This document shows, one piece after another, positions 2,023 through 63,336 of a stretch of DNA of 64,000 bases. The stretch is from assembly GCA_000004985.1 (NCBI GenBank), contig GG738846.1; one strand, 5' to 3'. Origin of the DNA: Naegleria gruberi (lineage: Eukaryota). A model generated the notes under the pieces. That model was not told where the DNA came from, did not search any database, and worked only from the letters and a program-made list of their open reading frames with translations. A program made the translations under genes and the position numbers. Position 1 is the stretch's first letter, and every line of letters starts with the position of its first letter.

Positions 2023-3420
2023 ATGAAAATAATTCTCATCACTATGTACATTCACTTAGTAACAACAACAACAGATGGTAGTGGCAATGAACAAAAGCTG
2101 AGGATATGTATGATTTCCGATTTCTTTTATCCAGGCTTTGGAGGAGTAGAATCACACATCTATTGTATATCAACAGGATTAATTAAAAGAGGGCACAAGG
2201 TTATTGTCATTACAACATCCTATGATGATCGGAAAGGTGTAAGATATTTAACGAATGGAATTAAAGTTTATTACATTCCTGTATTTAAAATTAATACATC
2301 TGCTGGCAGTGCAACATTACCGTTCATCTTTACTTCTTTACCACTGTTGAGAAATATTCTGATCAGGGAGAGAATTGAAATTGTGCATGGACATCAATGT
2401 ACATCCAATGTTTGTAATGAAGGACTCTTACATGCAAGAACCATGGGACTGAAATGTTTTTTCACTGATCATTCATTGTTTGGATTTGGAGATGAAGGAG
2501 GAGTACACATCAATAAGGTTTCTAGGTTTGTATTGAGTGAAGTGGATCATGTAATTTGCGTTTCACATACGCTGAAGGAAAATCTGACCCTTCGAGCATC
2601 TTTGAATCCATTCAAAACTACTGTCATACCACATGCTGTAGATACGAACGTATTCAAACCACTTAGAACGCACCCACCAAGAAGGGATGAAAGACTTAAA
2701 ATTGTATCAACATCAAGATTAGTTTACAGGAAGGGAGCGGATTTGCTGATTTCTATCATTCCTGTAATTTGTACAAAGTACCCACATGTGGATTTTATCA
2801 TTGCTGGAGATGGACCAAATTTAATTGAAATGACTGAAATGATTGAAAGATATGAACTATTTGACAGAGTGGAATTATTGGGAGCAAAACCTTATCATGA
2901 GATTCCTAGCGTTCTTCAAAGAGGTCACCTCTTCTTGAATACAAGTCTAACTGAGGCATTTTGCATGGCAATTTTGGAAGCAGCTAGTTGTGGACTTTTT
3001 GCTGTCAGTACAAATGTTGGTGGAGTAAGGGAAGTATTGCCAGACAATGACATGGTTTTATTGGCAAATCCAGATCCACTCTCTTTATGCGAAGCTATGG
3101 AAAAAGCCATTGAATGTCATGTTTATAATACTGACCCAATTCAAACGCATGAACGTGTATGCGAAATGTATAATTGGGATAAGGTAGTTGCATGTACAGA
3201 AGCTCTATACGTAGAATCCATGCATACATGTAAGGAGAGAGGCCTATTGGAAACCATCACATCTTACAACTCTGTTGGTTTCTTCCATGGAAAAATTATT
3301 GGACTTCTTACAACTCTGGACTATCTATTTTATCAAGCTCTTGAATACATGTATCCCAGAGAGGAAATAGATGTATGCCCAGAATTTGGTCCTTTCTACC
3401 TTAAAGATGTTAACGATTAA
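2023..3420 (+). CDS. GPI3: Phosphatidylinositol N-acetylglucosaminyltransferase catalytic subunit (PIG-A / Gpi3; GT4 family). This is the first step of GPI-anchor synthesis.
   Basis: Continuous 465-aa ORF. RICMISDFFYPGFGGVESHIYCISTGLIKRGHKVIVITTSYDDRKGVRYLTNGIKVYYIP..FTDHSLFGF..SRLVYRKGADLL..EAFCMAILEAASCGL.. is collinear with animal PIG-A along its whole length. The true start is probably the in-frame ATG near 2110 (MISDFFYP), or there is an unrecognised short 5' exon. Confidence 0.9.
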   Translation: MKIILITMYIHLVTTTTDGSGNEQKLRICMISDFFYPGFGGVESHIYCISTGLIKRGHKVIVITTSYDDRKGVRYLTNGIKVYYIPVFKINTSAGSATLPFIFTSLPLLRNILIRERIEIVHGHQCTSNVCNEGLLHARTMGLKCFFTDHSLFGFGDEGGVHINKVSRFVLSEVDHVICVSHTLKENLTLRASLNPFKTTVIPHAVDTNVFKPLRTHPPRRDERLKIVSTSRLVYRKGADLLISIIPVICTKYPHVDFIIAGDGPNLIEMTEMIERYELFDRVELLGAKPYHEIPSVLQRGHLFLNTSLTEAFCMAILEAASCGLFAVSTNVGGVREVLPDNDMVLLANPDPLSLCEAMEKAIECHVYNTDPIQTHERVCEMYNWDKVVACTEALYVESMHTCKERGLLETITSYNSVGFFHGKIIGLLTTLDYLFYQALEYMYPREEIDVCPEFGPFYLKDVND

Positions 3421-6141: not shown

Positions 6142-6214
6142 CGCCCACCGTGGGGGTCGAACCCACGACCACAAGGTTAAGAGCCTTGCGCTCTACCGAC
6201 TGAGCTAGACGGGC
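6142..6214 (-). tRNA. tRNA-Lys (anticodon CTT)
   Basis: The reverse complement reads GCCCGTCTAGCTCAGTCGGTAGAGCGCAAGGCTCTTAACCTTGTGGTCGTGGGTTCGACCCCCACGGTGGGCG. It shows a canonical cloverleaf with a 7-bp acceptor stem, GTTCGA T-loop and anticodon loop CT-CTT-AA. There is no encoded CCA, as expected for a eukaryote. Confidence 0.9.
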
Positions 6215-33479: not shown

Positions 33480-33553
33480 GCAGCGATAGATCAGTTGGTT
33501 AGATCGTAAGCCTAACACGCTTAAGGTCGCGGGTTCAAGCCCCGCTCGCTGTA
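33480..33553 (+). tRNA. tRNA-Val (anticodon AAC)
   Basis: GCAGCGATAGATCAGTTGGTTAGATCGTAAGCCTAACACGCTTAAGGTCGCGGGTTCAAGCCCCGCTCGCTGTA folds as a cloverleaf. It has a 7-bp acceptor stem (one G-U pair), D-arm GATC/GATC, anticodon stem TAAGC/GCTTA with loop CT-AAC-AC, and T-arm GCGGG-TTCAAGC-CCCGC. Confidence 0.85.
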
Positions 33554-45522: not shown

Positions 45523-45591
45523 AGCCCAACAATTGTTTCATTCTTTTTGAAATTCTTAATTAAGATCAGCAATTTTTCATCAAGATAAAAA

Positions 45592-45709
45592 GACTACAGC
45601 ACCACAGGTTCCCAAGTTGTCTCCAACCTCAGTACTGATGTGGCTCGACGATGCTTAACTTCTCAAATCGGACGGGATGAGGTGCATTCATCGTGATATG
45701 GCCGTAGCC
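45592..45709 (-). rRNA. 5S ribosomal RNA gene (copy 1)
   Basis: The reverse complement reads GGCTACGGCCATATCACGATGAATGCACCTCATCCCGTCCGATTTGAGAAGTTAAGCATCGTCGAGCCACATCAGTACTGAGGTTGGAGACAACTTGGGAACCTGTGGTGCTGTAGTC followed by TTTTT. It matches universal 5S blocks (CGGCCATAC, TCCCGTCCGAT, AAGTTAAGC, AGTACT, TGGGAAC.TG.TGCTGTAG), and the T-run serves as a Pol III terminator. Confidence 0.85.
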
Positions 45710-45927
45710 ATTCATTACCTTAATTTCCGGACAATAACTTTTAAAACCCTAGACGTTCCTTCACGAAAATGAAAAAGAATTCAACCCAACCACACGAATT
45801 ATTCTATAACGTTATTGTTAATTTGAATGATACATTGAGTAGCCAGAGTTTCAACATTGGAATGAAATTAATAAGTTCAATCGAGCAACAATGCAGGCAA
45901 AAATTTAATAGTTCATTTGGAATTTCC

Positions 45928-46239
45928 CTATTTACATCCAAATCTTATTCTTAAATCCTTCAAAAAGCAACCCCAAATAATGTAACACATAATTATTGGA
46001 TTAATTAAGGCCAACCAACTCGCCATCCAATAACTCATCACCACCAATGCTATTAAAACTCCCAAAATTCCATTAATTATTGGATAGGTAAAATCCACTC
46101 CTCTGTCCACATATCTAGGCAAACACAATGCATTCCACAAGGCATTCAGTAAAAAGATGATCACTCCCACCAAGAGAGACACAAAAATCGGAATGATGAA
46201 TGAATTTACGTAAAGTGGATATGTAAGATCTTGTTCCAT
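45928..46239 (-). CDS. Small (103 aa) multi-pass membrane protein, function unknown
   Basis: ATG ORF with three hydrophobic helices (FIIPIFVSLLVGVIIFLLNALW; ILGVLIALVVMSYWMASWLALI; IIMCYIIWGCF). Confidence 0.4.
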   Translation of the reverse strand: MEQDLTYPLYVNSFIIPIFVSLLVGVIIFLLNALWNALCLPRYVDRGVDFTYPIINGILGVLIALVVMSYWMASWLALINPIIMCYIIWGCFLKDLRIRFGCK

Positions 46240-46577
46240 TTTTTTTTAATGTTGAAAAAAGTTCACAAGATTATTGTGAAGCTTTTAAGGATTTAATCTC
46301 TCTGGATTCGAATGTTTGTGAGTGTGTTGACCTTAATTTTAATATGAAACAAGTTGAACCCCAGAAGTGGAACTCCTCCTGTGAAAAGTACTATTCTTCA
46401 GTGATTGAAGTTTTTGTGTAACACCAATTGTTTATGTTTTCCATATAATTTTCCACAAGATTACAATACTCGGAAATGAGGAAGTCTGTTTCCTTGAGAT
46501 TCACACTTTGATGAACTTCAAGTTTTCGGAAATGATAAATTCGGCTAGGTGAAACTTTAAACTATTCCCAAAAAAAA

Positions 46578-48101
46578 ATGCCTCAACATATTCCAAGCAA
46601 GTACAATAAATTCAACTCTCATCTCTCAGCCATTGATGATCTGGATGAATTTTATACGAGGAATCCATACGATATTTTTGATCGTTATTGTGAAGAGGAC
46701 AGCTTTATGGTTTTTAATAGAATAATTCCTTTCGCATTGATTCTCTATTCAGAAACTGAAAAGAAATTTATTTTCCAGAATAGTTTGATAGATGTGTGCC
46801 CTATGAATACATCTCCAAAGTATATACTTGCTCAATTTATGGAAAAATCTCGTTATAACAGATTTGGATTAATTAGGTTAGGTCAATTAGGGTTTAAGAT
46901 TGGGTATTCTTTCTTGAATCTTGTTTCTGAAAGAAAGGAAATATGTGATAGTTTATATTTGTACCACTCAACTGTTTTATCTATTCAGAAATACTCAAAA
47001 TCTAGTATTGAATTTTATGTTTCAGACAATAATAACTTTACAAATTTGAAAATTGCATTGTGTCAAGAAAATATTCTGAAAACAGAGATCATATACAAGA
47101 CGATAAAATTCTCCTCGATCCCTACTCGGTTATGGTCTAGTCAATCTTCGCAGGAATCAATAGCAGTTTCTCCTCAAATTATTAGAAATGGTCACAAAGA
47201 GAACATTTATTTAGACAACTCAATCTCTCTATTTCATTACAAAAATGATACCCAAAATATTGAATCTATTTGTTCACATGAATTTGAGCATCGTTATATT
47301 TTATTAGTCAATCAGAATAACAATGAAATTTTTATAATGAGCTTCCTTGACACTCTTGAATTTTACAAAATGGAACCATCACCATGTTATAACACATATG
47401 AAATGAAACCAGTTCATTTTGAAAACGTTGAGGAAATTAACGTAACAAACAAGGGTGTAACCTCATGTCCTTTAACAGGTAGCAAATATCTGGTATTTTT
47501 CTATAGGTACGATGATGATGATGAATCTAACATGAAAAATGTAACATATCAGGAGTTGTTTACTACTGATAAGGGGATGTGGATGCTCGTAGATTTAAAC
47601 TCAAACAGTGTCGAGAGGGTTTATCCAATTATTTATGATTTAGAGAAGGAAAAGCTACCTATAGTTTCATCTGATGGTTTCCAAACAGTTACAAAAAGAT
47701 TAACAAGAAGATGGATCCATATGCAAGATGGTGATTTGAATGGTGGGTGTACTGATTCTTTTTTAATCGATGGCACCAAACATTCTAATGGCCCCTTTAT
47801 CAACCATGACCCTATTTCTCCAATCCGATTCTCTGATGGATTTCTACCAGAATATTCATCCCTATTTGCATTTAGACCATTTCCATATAATTCTGAACTA
47901 TTTCAAGTCCATTTATCATTTCCTTTCTGTAAAGATTATTCAGACTATAAGTACACAAAGAAGGATTTAGACAAGTATGGATTTTCCTTTAGATTTTATT
48001 TCAAGTTTTATGAGGAAGCAACTTTTACTTTATTTGAAAGATTATTGGAATTTGAAAGAGAAGGTCAATTTTCAGATATCTCAATTTCAAGTGATAAATG
48101 A
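46578..48101 (+). CDS. Hypothetical 507-aa protein (orphan)
   Basis: ATG ORF with a good start context. No recognisable motif. The high-AT, N/K/F/Y-rich composition is typical of lineage-specific genes. Confidence 0.5.
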   Translation: MPQHIPSKYNKFNSHLSAIDDLDEFYTRNPYDIFDRYCEEDSFMVFNRIIPFALILYSETEKKFIFQNSLIDVCPMNTSPKYILAQFMEKSRYNRFGLIRLGQLGFKIGYSFLNLVSERKEICDSLYLYHSTVLSIQKYSKSSIEFYVSDNNNFTNLKIALCQENILKTEIIYKTIKFSSIPTRLWSSQSSQESIAVSPQIIRNGHKENIYLDNSISLFHYKNDTQNIESICSHEFEHRYILLVNQNNNEIFIMSFLDTLEFYKMEPSPCYNTYEMKPVHFENVEEINVTNKGVTSCPLTGSKYLVFFYRYDDDDESNMKNVTYQELFTTDKGMWMLVDLNSNSVERVYPIIYDLEKEKLPIVSSDGFQTVTKRLTRRWIHMQDGDLNGGCTDSFLIDGTKHSNGPFINHDPISPIRFSDGFLPEYSSLFAFRPFPYNSELFQVHLSFPFCKDYSDYKYTKKDLDKYGFSFRFYFKFYEEATFTLFERLLEFEREGQFSDISISSDK

Positions 48102-48451
48102 GACATGGTCTAGTGAAGGAATTAAAATTTGGTTTGGCTACTATTCAATATAGTGATTTGATTTATAGGTTTTTTGGAGATTTAATGGTCAGGGGAAGAA
48201 CATTTGGAAGGCTATTTGACAATTCAGAGAATTTACAATCACAATTCCAAGCAGTAACAAAAAATTTTGTTAAAAAAAAATAAATAAACAATTTAATCTC
48301 GGAAATTCCGAATTCCGAAAAAATTCCGTTTTATTAATAAGTGACACCCATAATAATCATAATCAAAGGTAGGATCGAAATATAAAATTTAAACTGTCAA
48401 AAATCTGACCGATTTCACTTCATACCATACAAATAACCAATACTTCTTAAA

Positions 48452-49225
48452 ATGCTACAACAATCAAACTTTAAAAGATTGAGAAGAAATAGTGATAACT
48501 TTGAAACAACCAAGAAGAGGAAGGTATTCAATGAAAGTTCTCAAGAAGAAGATTTCATAGATGATTCTGAGCAAGTAGTGTTTTCTCAATATTCACAACA
48601 ATCAGATGATGAGGAAGATCAAGAAGTAGCCAGTTCAGATGATGAATATGACATCCAAGAAGGAGAAGAGGAAGAAGAAGAACAAATTGAGGAAGCTGAA
48701 ATACCAAACAGAATAATCAATGTGAATGCAGAGGAGGATGAGTATCACTTTTCACAAGAAAGTGAAACTCCACCCACTGAAACAGCTCAACGAGTTAGAG
48801 CTTCAGGCTCCAGTGGAGAAGGTACATTGGATGTAAATTTGCAAAAGGGATCATGTGAAAGATATGTGCGAGCAATTTTGGGCAACTTTGTGGCACAATG
48901 TTGTGATCAAGAATTAGAGGAGAAAATTAATCGGGAAATAGATGACCAGCAATATCCCATTCAATATTTTATCAACACATTCAAGAATCATTTCTGGATT
49001 GAAGATGATTTTGAAAAGAGTGAGAATGCAATTAATTGTCAATGTTGTAATCATTCCCCTGTTCGTAATTTATTTATTGTAAAGAGTAAGGGTGATTATA
49101 CAGATCCAATCTATGTTGGCTGTAAATGCGCACTGCTTTTTTATCTAGATGGAAGTGATAATAGACAAGAAACTAAACGAATGGTAGAGGAGAAACTGTA
49201 TAACGTAAACAGATTTTTTCAATAA
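48452..49225 (+). CDS. Acidic protein with a C-terminal Cys/His cluster (possible zinc-binding module)
   Basis: 257 aa. A long D/E-rich N-terminal region is followed by ...CCDQ..., INCQCCNHSPVRNLF and YVGCKCALLFY. Confidence 0.45.
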   Translation: MLQQSNFKRLRRNSDNFETTKKRKVFNESSQEEDFIDDSEQVVFSQYSQQSDDEEDQEVASSDDEYDIQEGEEEEEEQIEEAEIPNRIINVNAEEDEYHFSQESETPPTETAQRVRASGSSGEGTLDVNLQKGSCERYVRAILGNFVAQCCDQELEEKINREIDDQQYPIQYFINTFKNHFWIEDDFEKSENAINCQCCNHSPVRNLFIVKSKGDYTDPIYVGCKCALLFYLDGSDNRQETKRMVEEKLYNVNRFFQ

Positions 49226-49970
49226 TATGACAATAAATCGTTTCTAAATTCATAAATATAGTTCTTGTTTCTCAGATTTGCAAGTTTTTCCTTCTTTCTA
49301 ACCACCATATAATTTACATAAATTTCAAACATGCTGTCCATATTGGTGACAGGAGTGAAATGGCAACTTGACACCCCCAACACTGTATTCAATTAAATGA
49401 ATAAACTTCCTGAAAAGATGTATCACTGTTATCCATTTAACATTGTAATAAAACCAAAATGTAAATATTCAATAATGCACAGTTGATTATTTTTCTTTAT
49501 TATCTATTAAACTTCAAGTTCAATTCCACATCCTACATAAATTTCAATGTCAATAATGTCAATTCTGCTGTTTACTTCATGTTAAACTATATCAAAGAAG
49601 TCATATCTTAAAACAACAAACAACGACCATAATTCAGTTTTCAAAAACCATTCACCCAAAAAGGTGTTTAAGATGTGTTCGTATGCCAGAATTTGGTCAA
49701 TAATCAAAGTGGTTGTTGCCCTCCTTCTCAATTTTTTCCTGTGAGGATACATCTGGTATGATTTCTCGCTCTGTTTGTTTAAAAGAATTTCACAACCTCT
49801 TAACAAAATTTACATAAGAATTGGTTGAAACAAACTTCAAAATCTTCGAATTGACCAACACTCTATCACATTTCCTCTCCATTCAAGAAGGCAGTTCGTG
49901 AAATGAATCTTCTGATTTACTTGGATATACTATATAATACTAAACAGTAGTATTTATTTTGTTTCAAAAA

Positions 49971-50876
49971 TTAAATTTCAAATATTAAATCTTGTCTAAA
50001 ATTATTTCCCTCAATTTGTGGATGTTTAGAAGAAAGGTATCCTAATTGATTTCCTGCCACAATAATTCCATTTTCAGTTTGTTTCACAATCGAATAGTGA
50101 GTATGTCCATAAATCCACATGATAATTGGTGATTTGATTAAAGAACTCAAATCACTTGCAAATGCATGATTGTAATGTTGAACTTTCAAATCTTTCGTGT
50201 GCTCATATTGAGGAGCTCCAACTCCACTCATCATTGGTGCATGATGGGTACAGACAATCACTTTCTTGTTTTTGTGTTTTTCCAATTCATTACTCAACCA
50301 TTTCACATCCTCTTGGAAAAATCTGACAGTGTCAGTGACATGTAAAGTTCTGGATTTTCCATTTTCCATAATTGAAATTAATCTATAGTCATTCAACGAC
50401 TTGAATATATTTGAGAAGGATGTTGTGAAATTGTGAAATTTTGAAATTTTGACACCTACATTCTGTACCACCTGAAGTGCTTGATCTGGAACATGACTCC
50501 ACAGAGTACATCCCAGGAACACAACTTGCTCTCCATCACCATTAATTTCTACAGAATTTTGATAGAGAAAATGAACATTTGCGAATAAATTGGCCAACTT
50601 TTTCATTCGATCCACAGATGACCAATAATCATTTCCATAGAATTCATGATTGCCGGCCACAATAATCACATCCCGATACTTTGCAGAGCAGTACTGCAAA
50701 AAATCCGAATAGCAATCGAGAAATGGATTTGCAATATCACCAGCAAGAATCAGCACGTGACCAATTTCCTTTCCACTCAATATAAAATTACCAAACTTTT
50801 CCTTGAATTTCAAATTGAAATCATCAAAGGAAGGAAAATGTTCAATGTGCAGATCGCTCATAAATTGAATTTTCAT
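49971..50876 (-). CDS. Calcineurin-like metallophosphoesterase
   Basis: 301 aa with the ordered metallophosphatase motifs SDLH (GDxHG-like), GDIAN (GDxxDRG-like), GNHE, then CTHHAP and GHTH. Confidence 0.8.
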   Translation of the reverse strand: MKIQFMSDLHIEHFPSFDDFNLKFKEKFGNFILSGKEIGHVLILAGDIANPFLDCYSDFLQYCSAKYRDVIIVAGNHEFYGNDYWSSVDRMKKLANLFANVHFLYQNSVEINGDGEQVVFLGCTLWSHVPDQALQVVQNVGVKISKFHNFTTSFSNIFKSLNDYRLISIMENGKSRTLHVTDTVRFFQEDVKWLSNELEKHKNKKVIVCTHHAPMMSGVGAPQYEHTKDLKVQHYNHAFASDLSSLIKSPIIMWIYGHTHYSIVKQTENGIIVAGNQLGYLSSKHPQIEGNNFRQDLIFEI

Positions 50877-50985
50877 TTTTTTTAAGATAAGATTCGTTAT
50901 TATTGCAATAAAAGATTTTTTTTAAGATAATTCAATTTTACAAAAAATCAAATGGTTCAAATACCTTTCGAATAAGAAGGAAAAA

Positions 50986-51103
50986 GACTACAGCACCACA
51001 GGTTCCCAAGTTGTCTCCAACCTCAGTACTGATGTAGCTCGACGATGCTTAACTTCTCAAATCGGACGGGATGAGGTGCATTCATCGTGATATGGCCGTA
51101 GCC
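50986..51103 (-). rRNA. 5S ribosomal RNA gene (copy 2)
   Basis: Identical to copy 1 except for one transition (CGAGCTACATCAG versus CGAGCCACATCAG). It shares the upstream flank TTCATTACCTTAATTTC and the downstream A/T-run. It lies in direct orientation 5.39 kb from copy 1. Confidence 0.85.
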
Positions 51104-51271
51104 ATTCATTACCTTAATTTCTGAAATATAAATCAATTCAACCTTCACCAATTCTCTCTATTTGCAAATCTCGAAACTATCACAAGTTGATTTCTTCAAA
51201 TTTTCTCTATTTACTTACTATTTAAAATAATAATAAATCAATTCTTCCTATATTATGAATTTTTTGAAAAA

Positions 51272-52477: not shown

Positions 52478-53500
52478 TTACACCAAATTAGTGAAGGAGA
52501 AATTATTTAACCAGGTGTTATCTTCACAGGTAGCAGTGTAAGAAATAGCAGGGGAAGTATTTTGAGGGGAGGATGGTTGTTTTCTTTGGAAGAAATGGAT
52601 ATTTGGAGTATGTTTTTCGAAAGGAGAGGTGGAAATTCTAGCGATTTGTTTTGGTGGAGATCTTTCAGGAGTCTTTGGAGCAATTGGTTGTTGGACTGGT
52701 TGTTGTCTAACTTGCTTGTTGGTCTTCTTGAATGTGTTTACCCATTGTTGAAGATCGGCAAGGAAAGGTTTAACAGGCCAAAAATTGCCTCTTGCTTGCT
52801 TCCTGATAATTTCACCAATATTAAACCAGGAAATTTGAGCAATTTCCTTTCTGGTTTGGGTGAGGAACTTGGTAGATGAAGGAATGTTTGGAGCAATAAA
52901 AAGTTTAACTAATTGTTCGTTGAATTGTCCTTCAAGGAATTGGTCTTTCAAAATATATTGAGAGCAATCAAAACCAACTTCTTCTCTACCTTCTCTGACA
53001 GCACAAGCGACTTCTTCTTCATTCTTGTTAATCTTACCTCTTGGGAAAGACCAAGACTTGGAGTTCCATCCCTTGACTAGGAGAATATTTTCCAAGGTTT
53101 CATCAATTAAAATAACACCGCATACAGGTACGCTAGTCTTGTAATTGATAAAGGATTGAATGTGTTCATCAACAGTTTTTTGGTATGGTTGGAGGAAAGG
53201 GCAGGCAAGGAAAACCTTATCGGCGAATTGGTGGAGGTTGAATTTAGGAAGGGAAGGATTTTGTTCTCTATAAAAATCCAAATAGAACCAAAAGGCTTCT
53301 TCAATTTGGAAGAAGAGACGGTCAAAGTTTTCGTGTTCTTCTTCAGGACAATTGAGAATAAATTTAACTACTAGTTCATCCATAATTTCATCGAGAGATT
53401 TGACTCTAGTAGGGGTTTCAACTTTTCTAGCATCTTCCTTCGAATTTCTTCTTGGGGATTTCTTAGAAGGGGACTTTCTAGCATTATTCATTCCTGACAT
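52478..53500 (-). CDS. DCP2: mRNA-decapping enzyme subunit 2 (Dcp2): Box A plus Nudix hydrolase
   Basis: 340 aa. The N-terminal Box A region LDEIMDELVVKFILNCPEEEHENFDRLFFQIEEAFWFYLDFY matches Dcp2. The Nudix box is GKINKNEEEVACAVREGREEVGFD (GxxxxxExxxxxxxREuxEExGu). The C-terminus is Q/P-rich. Confidence 0.85.
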   Translation of the reverse strand: MSGMNNARKSPSKKSPRRNSKEDARKVETPTRVKSLDEIMDELVVKFILNCPEEEHENFDRLFFQIEEAFWFYLDFYREQNPSLPKFNLHQFADKVFLACPFLQPYQKTVDEHIQSFINYKTSVPVCGVILIDETLENILLVKGWNSKSWSFPRGKINKNEEEVACAVREGREEVGFDCSQYILKDQFLEGQFNEQLVKLFIAPNIPSSTKFLTQTRKEIAQISWFNIGEIIRKQARGNFWPVKPFLADLQQWVNTFKKTNKQVRQQPVQQPIAPKTPERSPPKQIARISTSPFEKHTPNIHFFQRKQPSSPQNTSPAISYTATCEDNTWLNNFSFTNLV

Positions 53501-56577: not shown

Positions 56578-59400
56578 ATGTCAAAGCCTATTCGATTCAC
56601 ACAAACACGAAGATCTTTCATCACTTCCAACAACAACAATGATGACTGGCTTGCACCATTGCTTGCCCAAACAAACATGCCCGAAGGCAACTTTAAAAGA
56701 CCATTGGCAGTGGGTGGTACTTTTACGAATGGTGATAAAACATATAAAATCATAGAGATTTTTGTTGAAGGAGGTCAAGCAAAAACATTCAAATGTTTAG
56801 ACAGGTACAACAATATTGTGGTGGTAAAATTGCTTCCTTGTGAGAATGTGTTATCGTATGGAGATTGTATAGAATTCAACTTGTCACTTTCTAATGAAGC
56901 AAAGAGAACATTTTCACGATATATTATCTATCAGATGGATGGATTTACAGTAACAATCAATAATTCCGAAAATAATATTGATGAACAATATATTTGTGTT
57001 GTTACAGAGTATTGTAAAGAAGGCTATTTGAATGTTATAGGTCATTCTTTTGACATAACCATCTCACTTGTATTACAGTTTATTTTCCAGAGTGGAATAG
57101 GTTTAGATAAATTACATAATGTTGGTTTTGTTCACATGGATTTGAAACCAGAGAATTTATTCATAAGAGAATTCACACAACACAAGATTCTCTTGGTTGT
57201 TGGAGATTTAGGAATAGCCAGAAAGTTCCAAAACCAAGAAGAACAAGAAGATGGTGAGTACTACTGGGGTACCGAAGGCTACAGAGATCCAATTTATAGG
57301 AAATGTGGTACATTTTCTTCTTCATGTGATGTTTGGGGCATTGGTGTAACTTTTTTGGAGTTTATTTCAAAGAAAAGGATTAGTACTGATTTTGAGACAA
57401 TGTCAGAAATAGAGAGACACTGGTATATTGAATTATTATTTGCTGAAATATTATTAACCAAACCTAGAGAACAAGAAGAATGGTCTATCATCAAATATAT
57501 TGTTAAAGGAATGTTAACAGAAAACATTGACAAAAGATTAACCATTTTGGATATCTTTAGAACTATTTTTACAGAAGCAGTTAATGAAATAGATTTTGCA
57601 AGCAATTTCCAAAGATTGAAAGATGTTTTTAGAATGAATGAATCTGTGGTTATTTCATGTCTACATGAAAATGGTATGAATTTAAAATATGTTGATGATG
57701 GATATTTAGATAGAAGAGATATTATAGAAATAGCTGTCTCTCAAAATGGTCTCTCTTATGAATATATCAAATCAAATCACAATCAATTCATGTATGACAA
57801 AAAAATAATTCAAAAAGCTTACCAAAGTAACCCAGCTGTTCTTAAGTTCATTCCAGAACATTTCCACAATACTGAATATTTGGGAAATGATATGCGACTA
57901 AAAAATTCAGACAATCAAAGTATTAGCATAATTGATAGTAATGATATAAGTATCATGATGCACAAAGTTAAAATAGATGGAATGTACTTAATTTCAGCTT
58001 CAAGTGAATTAAGAAATACCTATGAACTTGTTAAGGAAAGTGTTAAATCTAGAGGGATATCATTACAATATGCCTCTGATGATCTTAAAAAGAAGTACGA
58101 AATTTGCGACATTGCTATTTCTCAGAATGGGTTGGCTTTGGAGTTTGTTGATGAAAGTATAATAGATGACAATTTGGTGCTTAAGGCTGTGAAAAATAAT
58201 GGGATGGCGTTACAGTTTGTATCTGATATTTGGAAAACCGAAGAAATTGCCCGAACCGCCATTCGTTCCAAGGGAAAAGCTATTCAGTTCATACCAAAAG
58301 ATTTGTTAGATCAATATGCAGTGATTTTATTTAATGAAAATCTCGAAAGCATGTTCGTATGTTTGTTTGTGCAAGGATGGGAATATGTTGAAAAGTGTAT
58401 TCGAAATTATGGCGGTAAGGTAGACTATTTAGAAGGTATATTACTAAGCAAATCAGAACTGAGTACCATTGTATTAGCTAGTGAACAAGGTGATTCAAAT
58501 GCACAATTTAATCTTGCAGTTATGTATGAAAATGGTGAAGGAATATTACAAGATTATTCAAAAGCATTTGAATGGTTTTTAAAAAGTGCTGAACAAGGTG
58601 ATTCAAATGCACAATTTAATCTTGCAGTTATGTATGAAAATGGTGAAGGAATAGTACAAGATTATTCAAAAGCATTTGAATGGTTTTTAAAAAGTGCTGA
58701 ACAAGGTTATTCAAATGCACAATTTAATCTTGCATTGATGTATGATAATGGTATTGGAATATTACAAGATTATTCAAAAGCATTTGAATGGTATTTAAAA
58801 AGTGCTAAACAAGGTGATTCAAGAGCACAATTTAATCTTGCATTGATGTATGAAAATGGCAAAGGAGTAGAACAAGATTATTCAAAAGCATTTGAATGGT
58901 TTTTAAAAAGTGCTAAACAAGGTGATTCAAATGCACAATTTAATCTTGCATTGATGTATGAAAATGGCATTGGAATATTACAAGATTATTCAAAAGCATT
59001 TGAATGGTATTTAAAAAGTGCTGGACAAGGTTATTCAAGAGCACAATTTAATCTTGCATTGATGTATGAAAATGGTATTGGAATATTACAAGATTATTCA
59101 AAAGCATTTGAATGGTATTTAAAAAGTGCTGAACAAGGTTATTCAAATGCACAATTTAATCTTGCATTGATGTATGAAAATGGTGAAGGAATATTACAAG
59201 ATTATTCAAAAGCATTTGAATGGTATTTAAAAAGTGCTGAACAAGGTGATTCAAGAGCACAATTTAAGCTTGCAGTTATGTATTATAATGGTGAAGGAAT
59301 ATTACAAGATTATTCAAAAGCATTTGAATGGTTTTTAAAAAGTGCTGAACAAGGTAATTCAAGTGCACAATTCAAAATTAAGGCTTTAAAGATGGAATAA
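56578..59400 (+). CDS. Protein kinase (TKL-like, atypical catalytic motifs) with a central ~40-aa repeat region and a C-terminal array of 8-9 Sel1 (TPR-like) repeats
   Basis: 940-aa single exon. Kinase core: VVVKLL (beta3 Lys), HMDLKPENLF (catalytic loop, non-RD), VGDLGIA (DLG instead of DFG), GTEGYRDP. The middle region has about 6 repeats of the form NG(M/L)(A/S)L(Q/E)(F/Y)(V/A)(S/D)D...AV(K/S)(N/Q)NG. The C-terminus is 9x (S)NAQFNLA(V/L)MYENGEGILQDYSKAFEWFLKSAEQGD = Sel1 repeats. Confidence 0.9.
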   Translation: MSKPIRFTQTRRSFITSNNNNDDWLAPLLAQTNMPEGNFKRPLAVGGTFTNGDKTYKIIEIFVEGGQAKTFKCLDRYNNIVVVKLLPCENVLSYGDCIEFNLSLSNEAKRTFSRYIIYQMDGFTVTINNSENNIDEQYICVVTEYCKEGYLNVIGHSFDITISLVLQFIFQSGIGLDKLHNVGFVHMDLKPENLFIREFTQHKILLVVGDLGIARKFQNQEEQEDGEYYWGTEGYRDPIYRKCGTFSSSCDVWGIGVTFLEFISKKRISTDFETMSEIERHWYIELLFAEILLTKPREQEEWSIIKYIVKGMLTENIDKRLTILDIFRTIFTEAVNEIDFASNFQRLKDVFRMNESVVISCLHENGMNLKYVDDGYLDRRDIIEIAVSQNGLSYEYIKSNHNQFMYDKKIIQKAYQSNPAVLKFIPEHFHNTEYLGNDMRLKNSDNQSISIIDSNDISIMMHKVKIDGMYLISASSELRNTYELVKESVKSRGISLQYASDDLKKKYEICDIAISQNGLALEFVDESIIDDNLVLKAVKNNGMALQFVSDIWKTEEIARTAIRSKGKAIQFIPKDLLDQYAVILFNENLESMFVCLFVQGWEYVEKCIRNYGGKVDYLEGILLSKSELSTIVLASEQGDSNAQFNLAVMYENGEGILQDYSKAFEWFLKSAEQGDSNAQFNLAVMYENGEGIVQDYSKAFEWFLKSAEQGYSNAQFNLALMYDNGIGILQDYSKAFEWYLKSAKQGDSRAQFNLALMYENGKGVEQDYSKAFEWFLKSAKQGDSNAQFNLALMYENGIGILQDYSKAFEWYLKSAGQGYSRAQFNLALMYENGIGILQDYSKAFEWYLKSAEQGYSNAQFNLALMYENGEGILQDYSKAFEWYLKSAEQGDSRAQFKLAVMYYNGEGILQDYSKAFEWFLKSAEQGNSSAQFKIKALKME
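58483..59397 (+). repeat. Tandem array of about 8.5 near-identical 108-bp units encoding the Sel1 repeats
   Basis: The unit GAACAAGGTGATTCAAATGCACAATTTAATCTTGCAGTTATGTATGAAAATGGTGAAGGAATATTACAAGATTATTCAAAAGCATTTGAATGGTTTTTAAAAAGTGCT recurs head-to-tail with only a few substitutions per copy (for example GAT/TAT, GCAGTT/GCATTG, GAAGGA/ATTGGA). Confidence 0.8.
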
Positions 59401-59448: not shown

Positions 59449-62400
59449 TTAAATAAAGAATGGATTGTATGGATTTTGTAATAAATTTGGCAAGTTTTCA
59501 GATTGTGCTTTGAGAATTAAATTTGATAAGTAATTGTAATATTCACTTGGGAATGATTGGCTCAATTGTTTCATTAGGTATTTACTGGTATAGTAGAGAA
59601 TGGTTGGGTTGAATTTCTCTTGTTGTAATAAATTCTTGAAAAAGGTAATTCCACCAATAGATTCCAATACATTAACAGACTTGTTACATTTTTCAATTAT
59701 TAAAATTAGTAATACAGAACAAATAGATGACAATTGGCTTGATTGTTGTTGATTTGAATGCAAACTTTCGAATAAATAGTACAATATACTAATACTGATA
59801 TCTTTCAATAAATAAAAAGGTATTGTCAAGTATCCATTCAAAAACATTTCACACATATCCAAATTAAATAATTCATTAGATGATTTCAATGAAGACTGAA
59901 GAGAATTAACAATGGAAATAAAATCAAACACAATATAAAATGATTTGATGAGAATGTGTAAATTAGTCTCTTTTCTGTTAACAATACATTCTAATAGAGA
60001 TTCATTAATATTCTTAATCATAATCTTGACTAGATCGCCATGTGTTGTACATTTTGATTTGAATAATTGAATCTTCTTTTCCAATAAATTCAAATAGAGA
60101 ATTCTTACTTTAGGATTTTCATGATTAATCATATCTGTCATTAATTGATTAAGTTTCAATTTCAAATCTTGATAATATTTTGGTGTAAGATTATCATAAT
60201 CTTCAAAGAATTTGATAAAATTGAATAATACCAATTCACCTTGTCTTAAATCATCATCACTTTCCATAAATGTTGATGATGAATTAGTTGTTGTTGAATT
60301 TACACTACTACTAGCCCCATTAAAGGAACTATTGAGACCACTACCAGTAGTAGCATTGCCACCGCCACCACCAATACCAGAACCACTCATGTTTGGTCCA
60401 TTGGAAGTAGTATTAGTAGCACCTGTACAATTAAAGATTAAATCTTTAATAATTTTTTCAAATAAATTAATATTACTCATGTTCATATTATTTAAAATAT
60501 TTGTTGTGTAATTTTTAAATTCAGAGTTCAAGTATTTACAAGATAATTTTTGTAATCCAATAATAAACTTCATTAAATTATCAATTTTGAAAAAGAATGT
60601 TTCGGATTTTACAAAGTTGGTGTATAAGAATTTTGTGAATAATTTTACAAAAGTATAATGTTTGTCAACGTTTGGAATAAATTTGAATAGTAAATGTAAA
60701 TATAAAGGTAAATTTGATTGATCAAATATTAAAAATAAATAATCTTTTTGGAATGACTCCATATCTGGTAATTCCAAATTAATGATATAATCAAATATGA
60801 TTAAAAATAAATTATACTTGCTATTTAAATTTAACAAGTGATTATATTCTGTATAAAGTTGAATAATGGAATATATTGAGTTTGGTAATTTTTTAAGCAA
60901 ATTATTTTGATGATTAATTTGAAATGTTAATAGAGAAATTAAAATATCATAACAATTATATTCCTCATTAAAATTACTCAGATTAAATAAAATCAAATCG
61001 AATACAATTCGAACATCCAATTGATCAATTAATAATTGAGGATTTAACTCAATTATAATGTTATTATTCAAATTAATATTTGTGTTATAAATAATAAAAT
61101 GATGATACAGGAAATAAATTAAAATCTCACTAATCTTGGTCTTGATAAATGAATCGTTATGGTTCATTGTAAAATAAACCAGCGACATGTCGCAAAACTT
61201 GGAAAACAAATCAGAAATTACAAATTCAATATTTGGAATATTCTGATAGAGATTGAATAAATTAGTAACATAATAATAAATATTGAATATCAGTTTGAAA
61301 ACATAATAAATATTGGTATTATCATTGGTATCTAACATTTCCAAAAAGAAACTATTCAATTGCTTCATAGTTAATTTAGATTGATCATTTCCATAAATAG
61401 TGTGTGAAATCATTACTGTAAAGAATAGGCAGGCATCATTTAACTTGATTTCATCGCCATTAGAATTTATAATTTGATTCAAAATAGTATTGAACTGATC
61501 ATAATTTTCAATAATAGATTGAATATACAAGTCATTGTTATTCTTGTATTCATAATATTGTTCAATGTATTGTGATAGATTTGGAAGCAAAATTTCATCA
61601 ATATTATTCAAAACAAATTCTTCATGTTGAATTTCACTCTTGATACTTTGAATTTGGTGTTTAATAGTATCCATATTTTCAATATTTAAAATCTTGTTAC
61701 TTTTATCAATTTCTGCTTGTTTATCTTCAAATTTAGTAAATTTTCTAAATTGACTTCCAAAATAGATGAAATCCATGATAGTTTGATCAATTTCATTCTT
61801 TGAATCACCTCCAATGGATGCACCTCCTAATGATGTGAATGATGATGATTTTTCATTTAATGAGTAGTTATTATTTAATACATCATTATTTAATAATCTA
61901 TTCTTGTATAAATAATATTCAAAAACTCTTGAAGTTAATCCTGAAATTCTCTTATCATAATTTAACATGTTTAATATGAGAGTTTGATTTTTCTGTAAAA
62001 TTTTAATTAAATGCCTATGTAAATATTTAATACAGAATTGTAATTGTGTTTGTAAATTGGCATTTAAATGTTTTTTTGATAAGCCATCTTTACAATAGTA
62101 ATAAATATTTTTATATTGATCCAATAATGAATCATCCCTCTTGAATGTTGTAAGAAAGGTCTTTAATAAATATAAACAAATTAATAAAATTGATACAGAA
62201 TCTTCATTCTCTTGCATTCTTTTCAAAATCTCCTTATAAATGTAAACTTTACTGTTTTTATCATTGTGATATTTGAAAAGTAATTTGAGTGAATATGAAT
62301 TTTTAAAGTAAATATTACTATGTTTCGTATTGTTATTGTTATTCAATGCATTATCATATAAAACATATTCATTATTCAATAATTGACTATTATTACTTAT

Positions 62401-63336
62401 TAGAGTACTAGCACTTCCAATAAATGATTGAAATGTATTTAAATTTCCACTATATGAATTAATAGAAGTTGAATTATTTCCTCCAATAAAACTTCCACCA
62501 AGTGTCGTATTACTTGTCAAATTTGATGAGCTCGAATCAGAGCCACTCATCGATGTTAAGTGATTATAAATAATATTCATTGATGAATGATGTTGATTAT
62601 TGAGAACAATATTATCCTTTTTAATTATACTTGTCAATTCCTCAACTAGATCATGAATTATATTTTGAATGAATAAACTTTTAGGAGCATTCTTTGTTTG
62701 ATCCTTTACATAGGTAAGTGATGATCTCAAATTATTGGAAGTATGAGTAATGCCATTCAGGAAGGTTGGATCCATCATGAGTAACATGATATCATCGGAA
62801 TCTCCTCCATTTGCAGAGGAAGTAGGTGCACTTCCTCCACTCAAATAATTATTACTTGGAGTACCAGCAGATGATGTAAAATTGAGACTATTTCTTGGAG
62901 TGGTCACAGAGGAAGGTGATGAGAATAGATTTGTTGTAGGTGATCCAAAGTTGGTTGATGATGTAATCACTCGAGGAGATTGATTTGCATTATTATTAGT
63001 ATTGGAAGGTGAATTGAATTTTGTATATTGTATTGGAGAATTGGGTTGTTGGAAGGGAATTGAGGAGGCTGTTCGGTGGTGTAAATAGTGTTGCATCTCA
63101 TTGTAGCCTGAGAGTGATCCATTCTCAAAGGAGTGTCTTCGGTTAGGATCATTGTGATGACTATTTAAATATTGTGATGAGGAAGCTGCAGTTGAGGATG
63201 GAGGTGGTGGTGCATTTTGAGTTGATGTTGGTTGGCCATTATTTGTAGTGGGTGTTCCAAAAGCAACACTCGAATGAGTAGAGGCAGATGAAGAGGATGG
63301 TGTGCCAACAAGTCCTCCTTGTGGATGATGAGACAT
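59449..63336 (-). CDS. Large (1295 aa) hypothetical protein. It has an S/T/P/N-rich N-terminus and a very long N/I/L/Y-rich helical body, possibly an alpha-solenoid.
   Basis: Uninterrupted ATG-initiated 3.9-kb ORF, which is itself strong evidence of coding in about 75%-AT DNA. No family recognised. There is an internal Gly/Ser/Asn-rich linker (GSGIGGGGGNATTGSG). Confidence 0.55.
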   Translation of the reverse strand: MSHHPQGGLVGTPSSSSASTHSSVAFGTPTTNNGQPTSTQNAPPPPSSTAASSSQYLNSHHNDPNRRHSFENGSLSGYNEMQHYLHHRTASSIPFQQPNSPIQYTKFNSPSNTNNNANQSPRVITSSTNFGSPTTNLFSSPSSVTTPRNSLNFTSSAGTPSNNYLSGGSAPTSSANGGDSDDIMLLMMDPTFLNGITHTSNNLRSSLTYVKDQTKNAPKSLFIQNIIHDLVEELTSIIKKDNIVLNNQHHSSMNIIYNHLTSMSGSDSSSSNLTSNTTLGGSFIGGNNSTSINSYSGNLNTFQSFIGSASTLISNNSQLLNNEYVLYDNALNNNNNTKHSNIYFKNSYSLKLLFKYHNDKNSKVYIYKEILKRMQENEDSVSILLICLYLLKTFLTTFKRDDSLLDQYKNIYYYCKDGLSKKHLNANLQTQLQFCIKYLHRHLIKILQKNQTLILNMLNYDKRISGLTSRVFEYYLYKNRLLNNDVLNNNYSLNEKSSSFTSLGGASIGGDSKNEIDQTIMDFIYFGSQFRKFTKFEDKQAEIDKSNKILNIENMDTIKHQIQSIKSEIQHEEFVLNNIDEILLPNLSQYIEQYYEYKNNNDLYIQSIIENYDQFNTILNQIINSNGDEIKLNDACLFFTVMISHTIYGNDQSKLTMKQLNSFFLEMLDTNDNTNIYYVFKLIFNIYYYVTNLFNLYQNIPNIEFVISDLFSKFCDMSLVYFTMNHNDSFIKTKISEILIYFLYHHFIIYNTNINLNNNIIIELNPQLLIDQLDVRIVFDLILFNLSNFNEEYNCYDILISLLTFQINHQNNLLKKLPNSIYSIIQLYTEYNHLLNLNSKYNLFLIIFDYIINLELPDMESFQKDYLFLIFDQSNLPLYLHLLFKFIPNVDKHYTFVKLFTKFLYTNFVKSETFFFKIDNLMKFIIGLQKLSCKYLNSEFKNYTTNILNNMNMSNINLFEKIIKDLIFNCTGATNTTSNGPNMSGSGIGGGGGNATTGSGLNSSFNGASSSVNSTTTNSSSTFMESDDDLRQGELVLFNFIKFFEDYDNLTPKYYQDLKLKLNQLMTDMINHENPKVRILYLNLLEKKIQLFKSKCTTHGDLVKIMIKNINESLLECIVNRKETNLHILIKSFYIVFDFISIVNSLQSSLKSSNELFNLDMCEMFLNGYLTIPFYLLKDISISILYYLFESLHSNQQQSSQLSSICSVLLILIIEKCNKSVNVLESIGGITFFKNLLQQEKFNPTILYYTSKYLMKQLSQSFPSEYYNYLSNLILKAQSENLPNLLQNPYNPFFI

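Follow-up and report, generated by a model that had tools for sequence, protein, structure and literature searches.

The two 5S rRNA genes in the window analysed here (a 64-kb stretch of DNA corresponding to about 128001-192000 of scaffold_2 of Naegleria gruberi NEG-M) are very probably independent and functional-looking members of the multigene family of nuclear 5S genes dispersed through the genome of this amoeba. Rfam finds two 5S copies within the window, both on the minus strand and both covering RF00001 model positions 1-120: copy A, at 45591..45709, scores 105.4 bits and carries a C at position 68, and copy B, at 50985..51103, scores 102.7 bits and carries a T at that position, against a gathering score of 38. 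The initial annotation had recognised a pair of near-identical 5S genes in direct orientation on this strand, and Rfam confirms them as full-length genes one transition apart; the loci were placed correctly, with the 3′ ends off by 1 nt, and the 5′ flank described as shared is indeed present but extends over 18 nt rather than 17.

The extent of the similarity between the copies is sharply defined. Self-comparison of the window by BLAST pairs 45587-45727 with 50981-51121 in direct orientation, an alignment of 141 bp with one mismatch (99.3% identical), and the repeat search places the copies 5394 bp apart. This common unit consists of 18 nt of upstream sequence, the 119-nt gene and a T-run, the latter read from the sequence as a T5 tract of the Pol III terminator type at the 3′ end of each gene (45587..45591 for copy A and 50981..50985 for copy B, both on the minus strand). 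The sole difference is the C/T transition at 5S position 68 (45642 versus 51036 in the window, minus strand), which in the Rfam alignment turns a C-G pair into a U.G wobble. Outside the unit the sequences around the two copies are unrelated, with identity ending at -18 on one side and at the T-run on the other, and their settings differ as well: copy A is intergenic, between two convergent ORFs, and copy B occupies the divergent promoter region between a metallophosphoesterase gene and an amino-acid-kinase gene.

Both copies have in fact been catalogued, and the pair is an ordinary, already known feature of this genome. The proteins encoded in the window match NAEGRDRAFT proteins of N. gruberi NEG-M exactly, and Table S1 of PMC3369914 lists copy A as R33895 (scaffold_2 173590-173706) and copy B as R33610 (scaffold_2 178984-179100), with a coordinate offset from the window of exactly 128000 and the same spacing of 5394 bp. 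That study reported 279 putative 5S genes in N. gruberi, provided with an internal control region (ICR) and an upstream TATA box and unlinked to the rDNA unit (PMC3369914). From the positions in its Table S1, which does not give strand, we computed that 264 full-length genes are spread over 113 scaffolds with none in tandem, the smallest gap between two of them being 1.1 kb. Adjacent pairs no more than 6 kb apart number 35 in the same table, compared with about 5.7 expected under a Poisson model, a six-fold excess, and 66 of the 264 copies (25%) have a neighbour within this distance; close 5S pairs are therefore routine in N. gruberi. These genome-wide positions bear out the dispersed arrangement that the initial annotation had considered, and in place of a special block bracketed by 5S genes they leave what it had named as the plainer outcome, merely two dispersed 5S genes. 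Copies A and B do not differ from the rest of the family, of which they are listed members with the same T-run ending, apart from the label “tandem” that Table 1 of PMC3369914 gives to the N. gruberi arrangement. The coordinates in that paper themselves show a dispersed arrangement with loose clusters rather than a tandem one, and the window likewise lacks a tandem 5S rDNA array, in that it holds two copies in 64 kb separated by a spacer of 5.3 kb of unique protein-coding DNA. Across Naegleria the 5S RNA is near-invariant, and changes at its variable site are compensatory.

Dispersed 5S genes are also found in Neurospora crassa and Schizosaccharomyces pombe. In Acanthamoeba castellanii, about 100 dispersed copies are distributed across most chromosomes (PMC9528979). 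Although these three organisms belong to separate lineages, their 5S genes resemble those of Naegleria in being single Pol III units among Pol II genes, with a homogeneous RNA-coding part, unrelated flanks and short TATA-like upstream elements. Yarrowia lipolytica similarly has about 108 dispersed 5S copies outside the rDNA (PMC2566860), but these include tRNA-5S dicistronic units, whereas neither copy A nor copy B has a tRNA gene immediately 5′. The only tRNA genes that ARAGORN and Rfam find in the window lie at 6142-6214 and 33480-33553, and hence A and B are stand-alone 5S units.

On this reading, each copy would be a self-contained Pol III unit, comprising an A/T-rich upstream region with a TATA-like element, a short proximal stretch, the 119-nt gene with its internal control region and the T5 terminator, and each sits in a different intergenic spacer amid unrelated Pol II genes; we infer that both are transcribed. 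Their near-identity may be understood as the product of strong purifying selection on 5S rRNA, to which concerted evolution through gene conversion across the family would probably contribute. On visual comparison with the consensus given in PMC3369914, AGTTAAGC agrees with box A, and the box C region, GAGGTTGGAGACAACTTG, is two positions off; the same study found no TFIIIA in the N. gruberi lineage. Farther upstream, candidate TATA-like boxes can be assigned to TTTTAAAA at -37 to -30 of copy A (45739..45746, minus strand) and to TTTATATTT at -29 to -21 of copy B (51124..51132, minus strand), and these differ from each other in both sequence and position.

The shared upstream stretch merits separate consideration. 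The 18-mer GAAATTAAGGTAATGAAT occupies -18 to -1 of copy A (45710..45727, minus strand) and is identical in copy B (51104..51121, minus strand); a search of the window allowing up to three mismatches finds no further occurrence. It is not conserved in the 5S genes of N. lovaniensis or in one environmental Naegleria 5S gene, and in the orthologue of copy B in a sister strain (contig L001, about 98% identical to the window in DNA) an 82-nt indel takes the place of the sequence from -8 to -89. An apparent 13/18 match to the 18-mer on that contig proved to be mostly the retained AATGAAT, the remaining positions agreeing at a non-significant 6 of 11. That the 18-mer is not conserved in other Naegleria species and is broken by the sister-strain indel weakens the proposal in the initial annotation that it is a promoter element, which nonetheless stays viable, and favours a species-level proximal element or a conversion tract over the end of a mobile element; it may be a proximal promoter or start-site element particular to this species, or else mark where a conversion tract ends. 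The minimal conserved unit of these two copies, from -18 to the T-run, offers a ready hypothesis as to the Pol III proximal promoter of N. gruberi. It is also worth observing that identity at 18 of 18 positions with abrupt loss at -19 exceeds what a loosely conserved promoter needs, and could record a recent copying or conversion event.

How the two members came to lie so close together is a question of origin, and an answer in terms of local copying is compatible with their membership of a dispersed family. One possibility, which we advance tentatively and consider less likely than not to hold, is that the pair arose by local copying: a minimal unit of about 141 bp, running from -18 to the T-run, would have been duplicated or inserted over a short range into an adjacent intergenic spacer, its source being either the partner copy or another family member close by. 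The sharp edges of homology at these two points and the excess of close 5S pairs noted above speak for such copying, as does the lack of conserved 5S positions around the homologues of Dcp2, the metallophosphoesterase and the 507-aa protein in N. fowleri and Willaertia; N. lovaniensis does have a 5S gene near its metallophosphoesterase, yet the gene context differs. However, neither unit is flanked by a target-site duplication, a poly-A tail or another insertion scar, and the single-base difference between the copies is as compatible with selection or conversion as with recency. Furthermore, the orthologue of copy B is already present in the sister strain, which is about 2% diverged, so that the copying event, if there was one, was not very recent. 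The evidence from position is also less telling than it appears, because gene order is scrambled between Naegleria species and unconserved 5S positions therefore say little. No 5S gene occurs in the Dcp2-anchored loci of N. fowleri, Willaertia and two environmental contigs, and these loci have no neighbouring genes in common with the window; with synteny generally absent, they are uninformative on 5S-mediated rearrangement.

If local copying had been repeated, it would yield the loose clusters of single 5S units 1-6 kb apart that are observed across the N. gruberi genome. We regard as doubtful the broader proposition that Naegleria 5S genes are non-randomly arranged in such clusters among Pol II genes through repeated short-range copying of the unit, with the present pair as one such event. 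Were it true, it would represent a distinct mode of propagation for Pol III genes, and the clusters could act as chromatin boundaries or as recombination substrates.

It is improbable that copy B, with its T at position 68, is a decaying pseudogene or silent copy and that copy A alone is functional. Its Rfam score is slightly lower, position 68 falls, by position only, within what we take to be the intermediate-element stretch of a Xenopus-type ICR (+67 to +72), and the sister-strain orthologue combines C68 with the 82-nt indel in the upstream spacer. Against these points, copy B departs from copy A by a single transition in 119 nt, one that keeps the pairing as a G.U wobble, and it retains an intact 18-mer, TATA-like box and terminator. 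The 5S RNA of N. lovaniensis also has U at this position, and its U68-A108 and G69-C107 pairs indicate that the site tolerates change.

Between the copies lie 5.3 kb of ordinary chromosomal DNA with three annotated lineage-specific or conserved genes, and the description of this stretch in the initial annotation as made only of orphan genes holds for one near-orphan and fails for the other two. NAEGRDRAFT_77880 (46578..48101, plus strand) encodes a 507-aa protein that homologue searches assign to a Naegleria-restricted family, with relatives in N. lovaniensis, in N. fowleri and in N. gruberi itself (an old paralogue, 38% identical over the full length). It is conserved in the sister strain, where the coding sequence is 1.3% diverged, compared with 4-5.6% in the adjacent intergenic DNA, with a pN/pS of about 0.4, and it is an intervening gene that lies outside any 5S-related element. 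NAEGRDRAFT_61782 (49971..50876, minus strand) encodes a 301-aa calcineurin-like metallophosphoesterase (Pfam PF00149; phrog_1649, 113.7 bits) with orthologues in N. lovaniensis (47%), Willaertia (41%) and Acrasis (36%), spread across Heterolobosea and beyond. Horizontal acquisition of this gene, raised by the phage-like PHROG score, was rejected, as its closest relatives are heterolobosean and thus indicate vertical descent. The near-orphan is NAEGRDRAFT_61781 (48452..49225, plus strand), a 257-aa protein whose middle part is acidic and whose C-terminus is rich in Cys. It has no Pfam or PHROG match, and an exhaustive HMMER search returned nothing beyond a strain variant and a single repeat protein (residues 196-242); the Pfam matches of P0255, the sole distant match of this ORF, proved spurious and repeat-driven. 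A 103-aa hydrophobic ORF at 45928..46239 (minus strand), likewise without Pfam or PHROG matches, is a doubtful gene, and the portion of it covered by sister-strain contig L002 is 3.8% diverged, like intergenic DNA.

It is very improbable indeed that the 5.3 kb form a cassette, whether mobilised, acquired or segmentally duplicated, with copies A and B as its terminal direct repeats: the direct orientation and near-identity of the copies, the lineage-restricted genes between them and the good score of the metallophosphoesterase against a phage family, together with its giant-virus homologues, could be read this way, but Pfam and PHROG searches of all ORFs in the block match nothing except the metallophosphoesterase and hence no transposase, integrase, recombinase or reverse transcriptase, the repeat search yields no significant repeat apart from the 5S unit, so that, with direct reading of the flanks, LTRs, terminal inverted repeats and target-site duplications are all lacking, the GC content of the block is uniform with its surroundings, self-BLAST finds no second copy of the block in the window, the heterolobosean affinity of the metallophosphoesterase and the old paralogue and Naegleria homologues of the 507-aa gene elsewhere speak against acquisition, and 5S pairs at such spacing are frequent genome-wide (Table S1). 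At least part of the block is present in the sister strain too, the right boundary lying on L001 and the 507-aa gene on L002. The likeness to composite elements and segmental duplications bounded by direct repeats is limited to two 99.3% identical direct repeats bracketing several genes; here, in contrast, the repeats are 141-bp housekeeping genes, with no mobility machinery or target-site duplication, and the block is single within the window. The suggestion of a segmentally duplicated locus is unsupported, with homology confined to the 141-bp gene unit, and so is that of the ends of a mobilised segment, which find neither mobile-element genes nor terminal repeats nor a distinct composition to accompany them. 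Since 5S spacings of a few kilobases with ordinary genes between are common in N. gruberi, there is no indication that the segment is mobile or duplicated, and the value of the result lies in correcting a plausible-looking “mobile cassette” to a routine, known feature of a sequenced model amoeba.

A scan of metagenomes with a 33-nt 5S core returned two contigs only, one Naegleria-like (L007) and the other from an unrelated GC-rich organism (L008), too small a set for a logo of the upstream motif. Finally, unequal recombination between the direct 5S repeats could in principle delete or duplicate the genes that lie between them.

The window contains two 5S rRNA genes of eukaryotic nuclear type on the minus strand, copy A (45591-45709) and copy B (50985-51103), each of which aligns with positions 1-120 of the Rfam 5S_rRNA model (RF00001), at 105.4 and 102.7 bits, respectively, against a gathering score of 38. 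The initial annotation had recognized both genes and is borne out by Rfam; its lengths were right in substance but off by one nucleotide (the gene is 119 rather than 118 nt and the shared upstream flank 18 rather than 17). Immediately 3′ of each gene are five consecutive T residues, the standard stop signal for RNA polymerase III. A BLAST search of the window against itself yields one repeat pair at this locus (45587-45727 and 50981-51121), recovered in the repeat search as family D1 with a spacing of 5394 bp. The repeated unit is 141 bp long with 1 mismatch and comprises 18 nt of upstream sequence (GAAATTAAGGTAATGAAT), the 119-nt gene and the T-run; similarity between the two loci ends right at its edges. 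That mismatch is the single transition noted earlier, C in copy A versus T in copy B at 5S position 68 (window 45642 and 51036, minus strand), and in the Rfam alignment the T converts a C-G pair to a U.G wobble.

The pair is an already known feature. A search of the N. gruberi genome reported 279 putative 5S genes, described there as lacking linkage to the rDNA unit and as carrying an internal control region, with a TATA box upstream (PMC3369914). Table S1 of that study lists entries at scaffold_2 173590-173706 and 178984-179100 (PMC3369914); their spacing, 5394 bp, matches that of the window pair and their offset to the window is exactly 128000 (2 x 64000), hence both genes were already catalogued. 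When Table S1 is parsed and entries of at least 110 nt are kept, 264 remain, distributed over 113 scaffolds, and by the published coordinates no two of these lie less than 1.1 kb apart. The family is therefore dispersed and not truly tandem; Table 1 of the same paper gives "tandem: Y", whereas its own coordinates hold no tandem array (PMC3369914). Membership in this family supports the proposal of a dispersed 5S arrangement: the initial observation is real and that reading of it is correct. Adjacent genes no more than 6 kb apart form 35 pairs, whereas scattering at random over 41 Mb would give ~5.7, and 66 of the 264 genes have a neighbor within that distance. Given this frequency, a 5S pair with protein genes between its members is a routine N. 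gruberi motif rather than a peculiarity of this locus. Genome-wide, neighbors 1-6 kb apart are thus in roughly six-fold excess, a loose clustering of single 5S units among Pol II genes. Analogous dispersed 5S families occur in Neurospora and S. pombe. Others are known from Acanthamoeba castellanii, with about 100 copies (PMC9528979), and Yarrowia lipolytica, with 108 (PMC2566860); half of the Yarrowia copies are fused to a tRNA, whereas neither window copy is. The closest match to the window pair is the published N. gruberi family itself (PMC3369914).

The best-supported reading, which has the observed unit structure and family statistics behind it, is that each copy would be a self-contained Pol III unit with a TATA-like box, a proximal element, an internal control region and a T5 terminator. 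Each copy occupies its own intergenic spacer: copy A is flanked by convergent ORFs, and copy B lies within a divergent promoter region, ~110 bp from the start of a metallophosphoesterase gene. We infer that the copies are transcribed and that gene conversion takes place; homogeneity would be kept by selection on the 5S rRNA together with concerted evolution. When both copies are aligned with one from N. lovaniensis and one from an environmental Naegleria-like contig, the RNA is nearly invariant: the environmental sequence differs by 1 nt, and at the very site that varies, N. lovaniensis has compensatory substitutions (U68-A108 and G69-C107). The 18-nt upstream stretch has no third occurrence in the window, even with up to 3 mismatches allowed, and is not kept between the aligned species, which have in common only A/T-rich sequence that ends in GAAT or AGAT ahead of +1. 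TATA-like runs lie farther upstream at differing positions (-37 to -30 in copy A, -29 to -21 in copy B). The copy B orthologue of a sister strain about 98% identical to NEG-M has C68, the copy-A allele, and an 82-nt indel (window 51105-51187 versus 3048-3053 of the sister-strain contig L001) replaces its positions -8 to -89, taking away most of the 18-mer and the TATA-like run. The leftover 13/18 match consists mainly of the retained AATGAAT, so the 18-mer need not be complete. The indel junction (ENA ERZ929261 contig) shows short microhomology. The perfect identity of the 18-mer in NEG-M is compatible with two readings: a proximal promoter or start-site element that operates at species level, and a gene-conversion or copying tract whose edge lies there.

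Compatible with self-contained Pol III units, the pair could conceivably have originated by short-range copying of the minimal 141-bp unit which, if true, would also account for the genome-wide excess of close pairs. The larger duplication envisaged in the initial annotation is unsupported, as self-BLAST detects no duplicate of the intervening block, whole or in part, within the window and the similarity of the two loci stops at 141 bp. Equally unsupported is a mobilized cassette: the block contains no transposase, integrase or reverse-transcriptase domain and no GC shift, a repeat search and reading of the flanks revealed no terminal inverted repeats, long direct repeats or target-site duplications, and the right boundary (Dcp2, amino-acid kinase and copy B) and the 507-aa gene of the block are present in the sister strain. 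Dcp2, the metallophosphoesterase and a homologue of the 507-aa protein served as anchors for comparison with N. fowleri, N. lovaniensis, Willaertia magna and environmental contigs, and none of the loci so located has a neighboring gene in common with the window; these species show reshuffled gene order in general, so the absence of synteny is not attributable to the 5S genes. Only the N. lovaniensis locus has a 5S gene, 3.6 kb from the metallophosphoesterase orthologue and among unrelated genes. In principle, the direct repeats might mediate deletion of the block; there is no sign of such an event.

The window (~33% GC) has long, intron-poor ORFs encoding typical eukaryotic proteins (Dcp2, PIG-A, GPAT, pelota, a mitochondrial carrier and a LYR protein), and its PIG-A and pelota ORFs exactly match annotated NEG-M proteins. 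So do three genes of the block: NAEGRDRAFT_77880 (507 aa, 46578-48101), NAEGRDRAFT_61781 (257 aa, 48452-49225, plus strand) and the metallophosphoesterase NAEGRDRAFT_61782 (49971-50876, minus strand). The description of the block as made of orphans holds insofar as the metallophosphoesterase alone has a Pfam match and the 257-aa protein is a near-orphan, but the metallophosphoesterase and the 507-aa protein have homologues. Those of the latter are confined to Naegleria (a full-length N. gruberi paralogue at 38% identity, N. lovaniensis and N. fowleri). Its ORF is intact in sister-strain contig L002 (ENA metagenome), with 1.3% divergence versus 4-5.6% in adjoining intergenic DNA and pN/pS of ~0.4, and on this comparison is a real gene under constraint. 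The metallophosphoesterase scores 113.7 bits against the phage protein family phrog_1649 versus 44.6 against Pfam Metallophos; the proteins closest to it come from Heterolobosea (N. lovaniensis 47%, Willaertia 41%, Acrasis 36%), with remoter members in other amoebae, fungi, rotifers and giant viruses (moumouvirus, Tupanvirus), a pattern that indicates vertical descent. An exhaustive HMMER search with the 257-aa protein returned only a strain variant and one repeat protein, the latter matching just the Cys-rich C-terminus. The ~47-aa Cys-rich module there (residues 196-242) occurs 13 times in this 1010-aa protein (P0255) and may represent a small zinc-binding repeat not described before. The 103-aa ORF at 45928-46239 is doubtful as a gene; over the stretch that L002 covers, its divergence is 3.8%, similar to that of intergenic DNA.

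Elsewhere in the window, the Dcp2 coding sequence (52478-53500, minus strand) is identical over all 1023 nt in NEG-M and the sister strain, compared with 21 differences in 939 nt of the adjoining amino-acid-kinase gene and 17 in 513 nt upstream of Dcp2. GenBank annotates only a partial 217-aa Dcp2 (EFC50074.1); the full 340-aa ORF is present, with box A and NUDIX domains, and orthologues match it end to end. The ORF at 56578-59400 encodes a 940-aa protein with a protein kinase domain, DUF4116 repeats and Sel1 repeats, the last encoded by a tandem array at 58482-59372 (plus strand; 108-bp period, copies 91-95% identical). A 1295-aa ORF without a Pfam match occupies 59449-63336 (minus strand), and the GC minimum of the window, 23%, lies at 60-62 kb.
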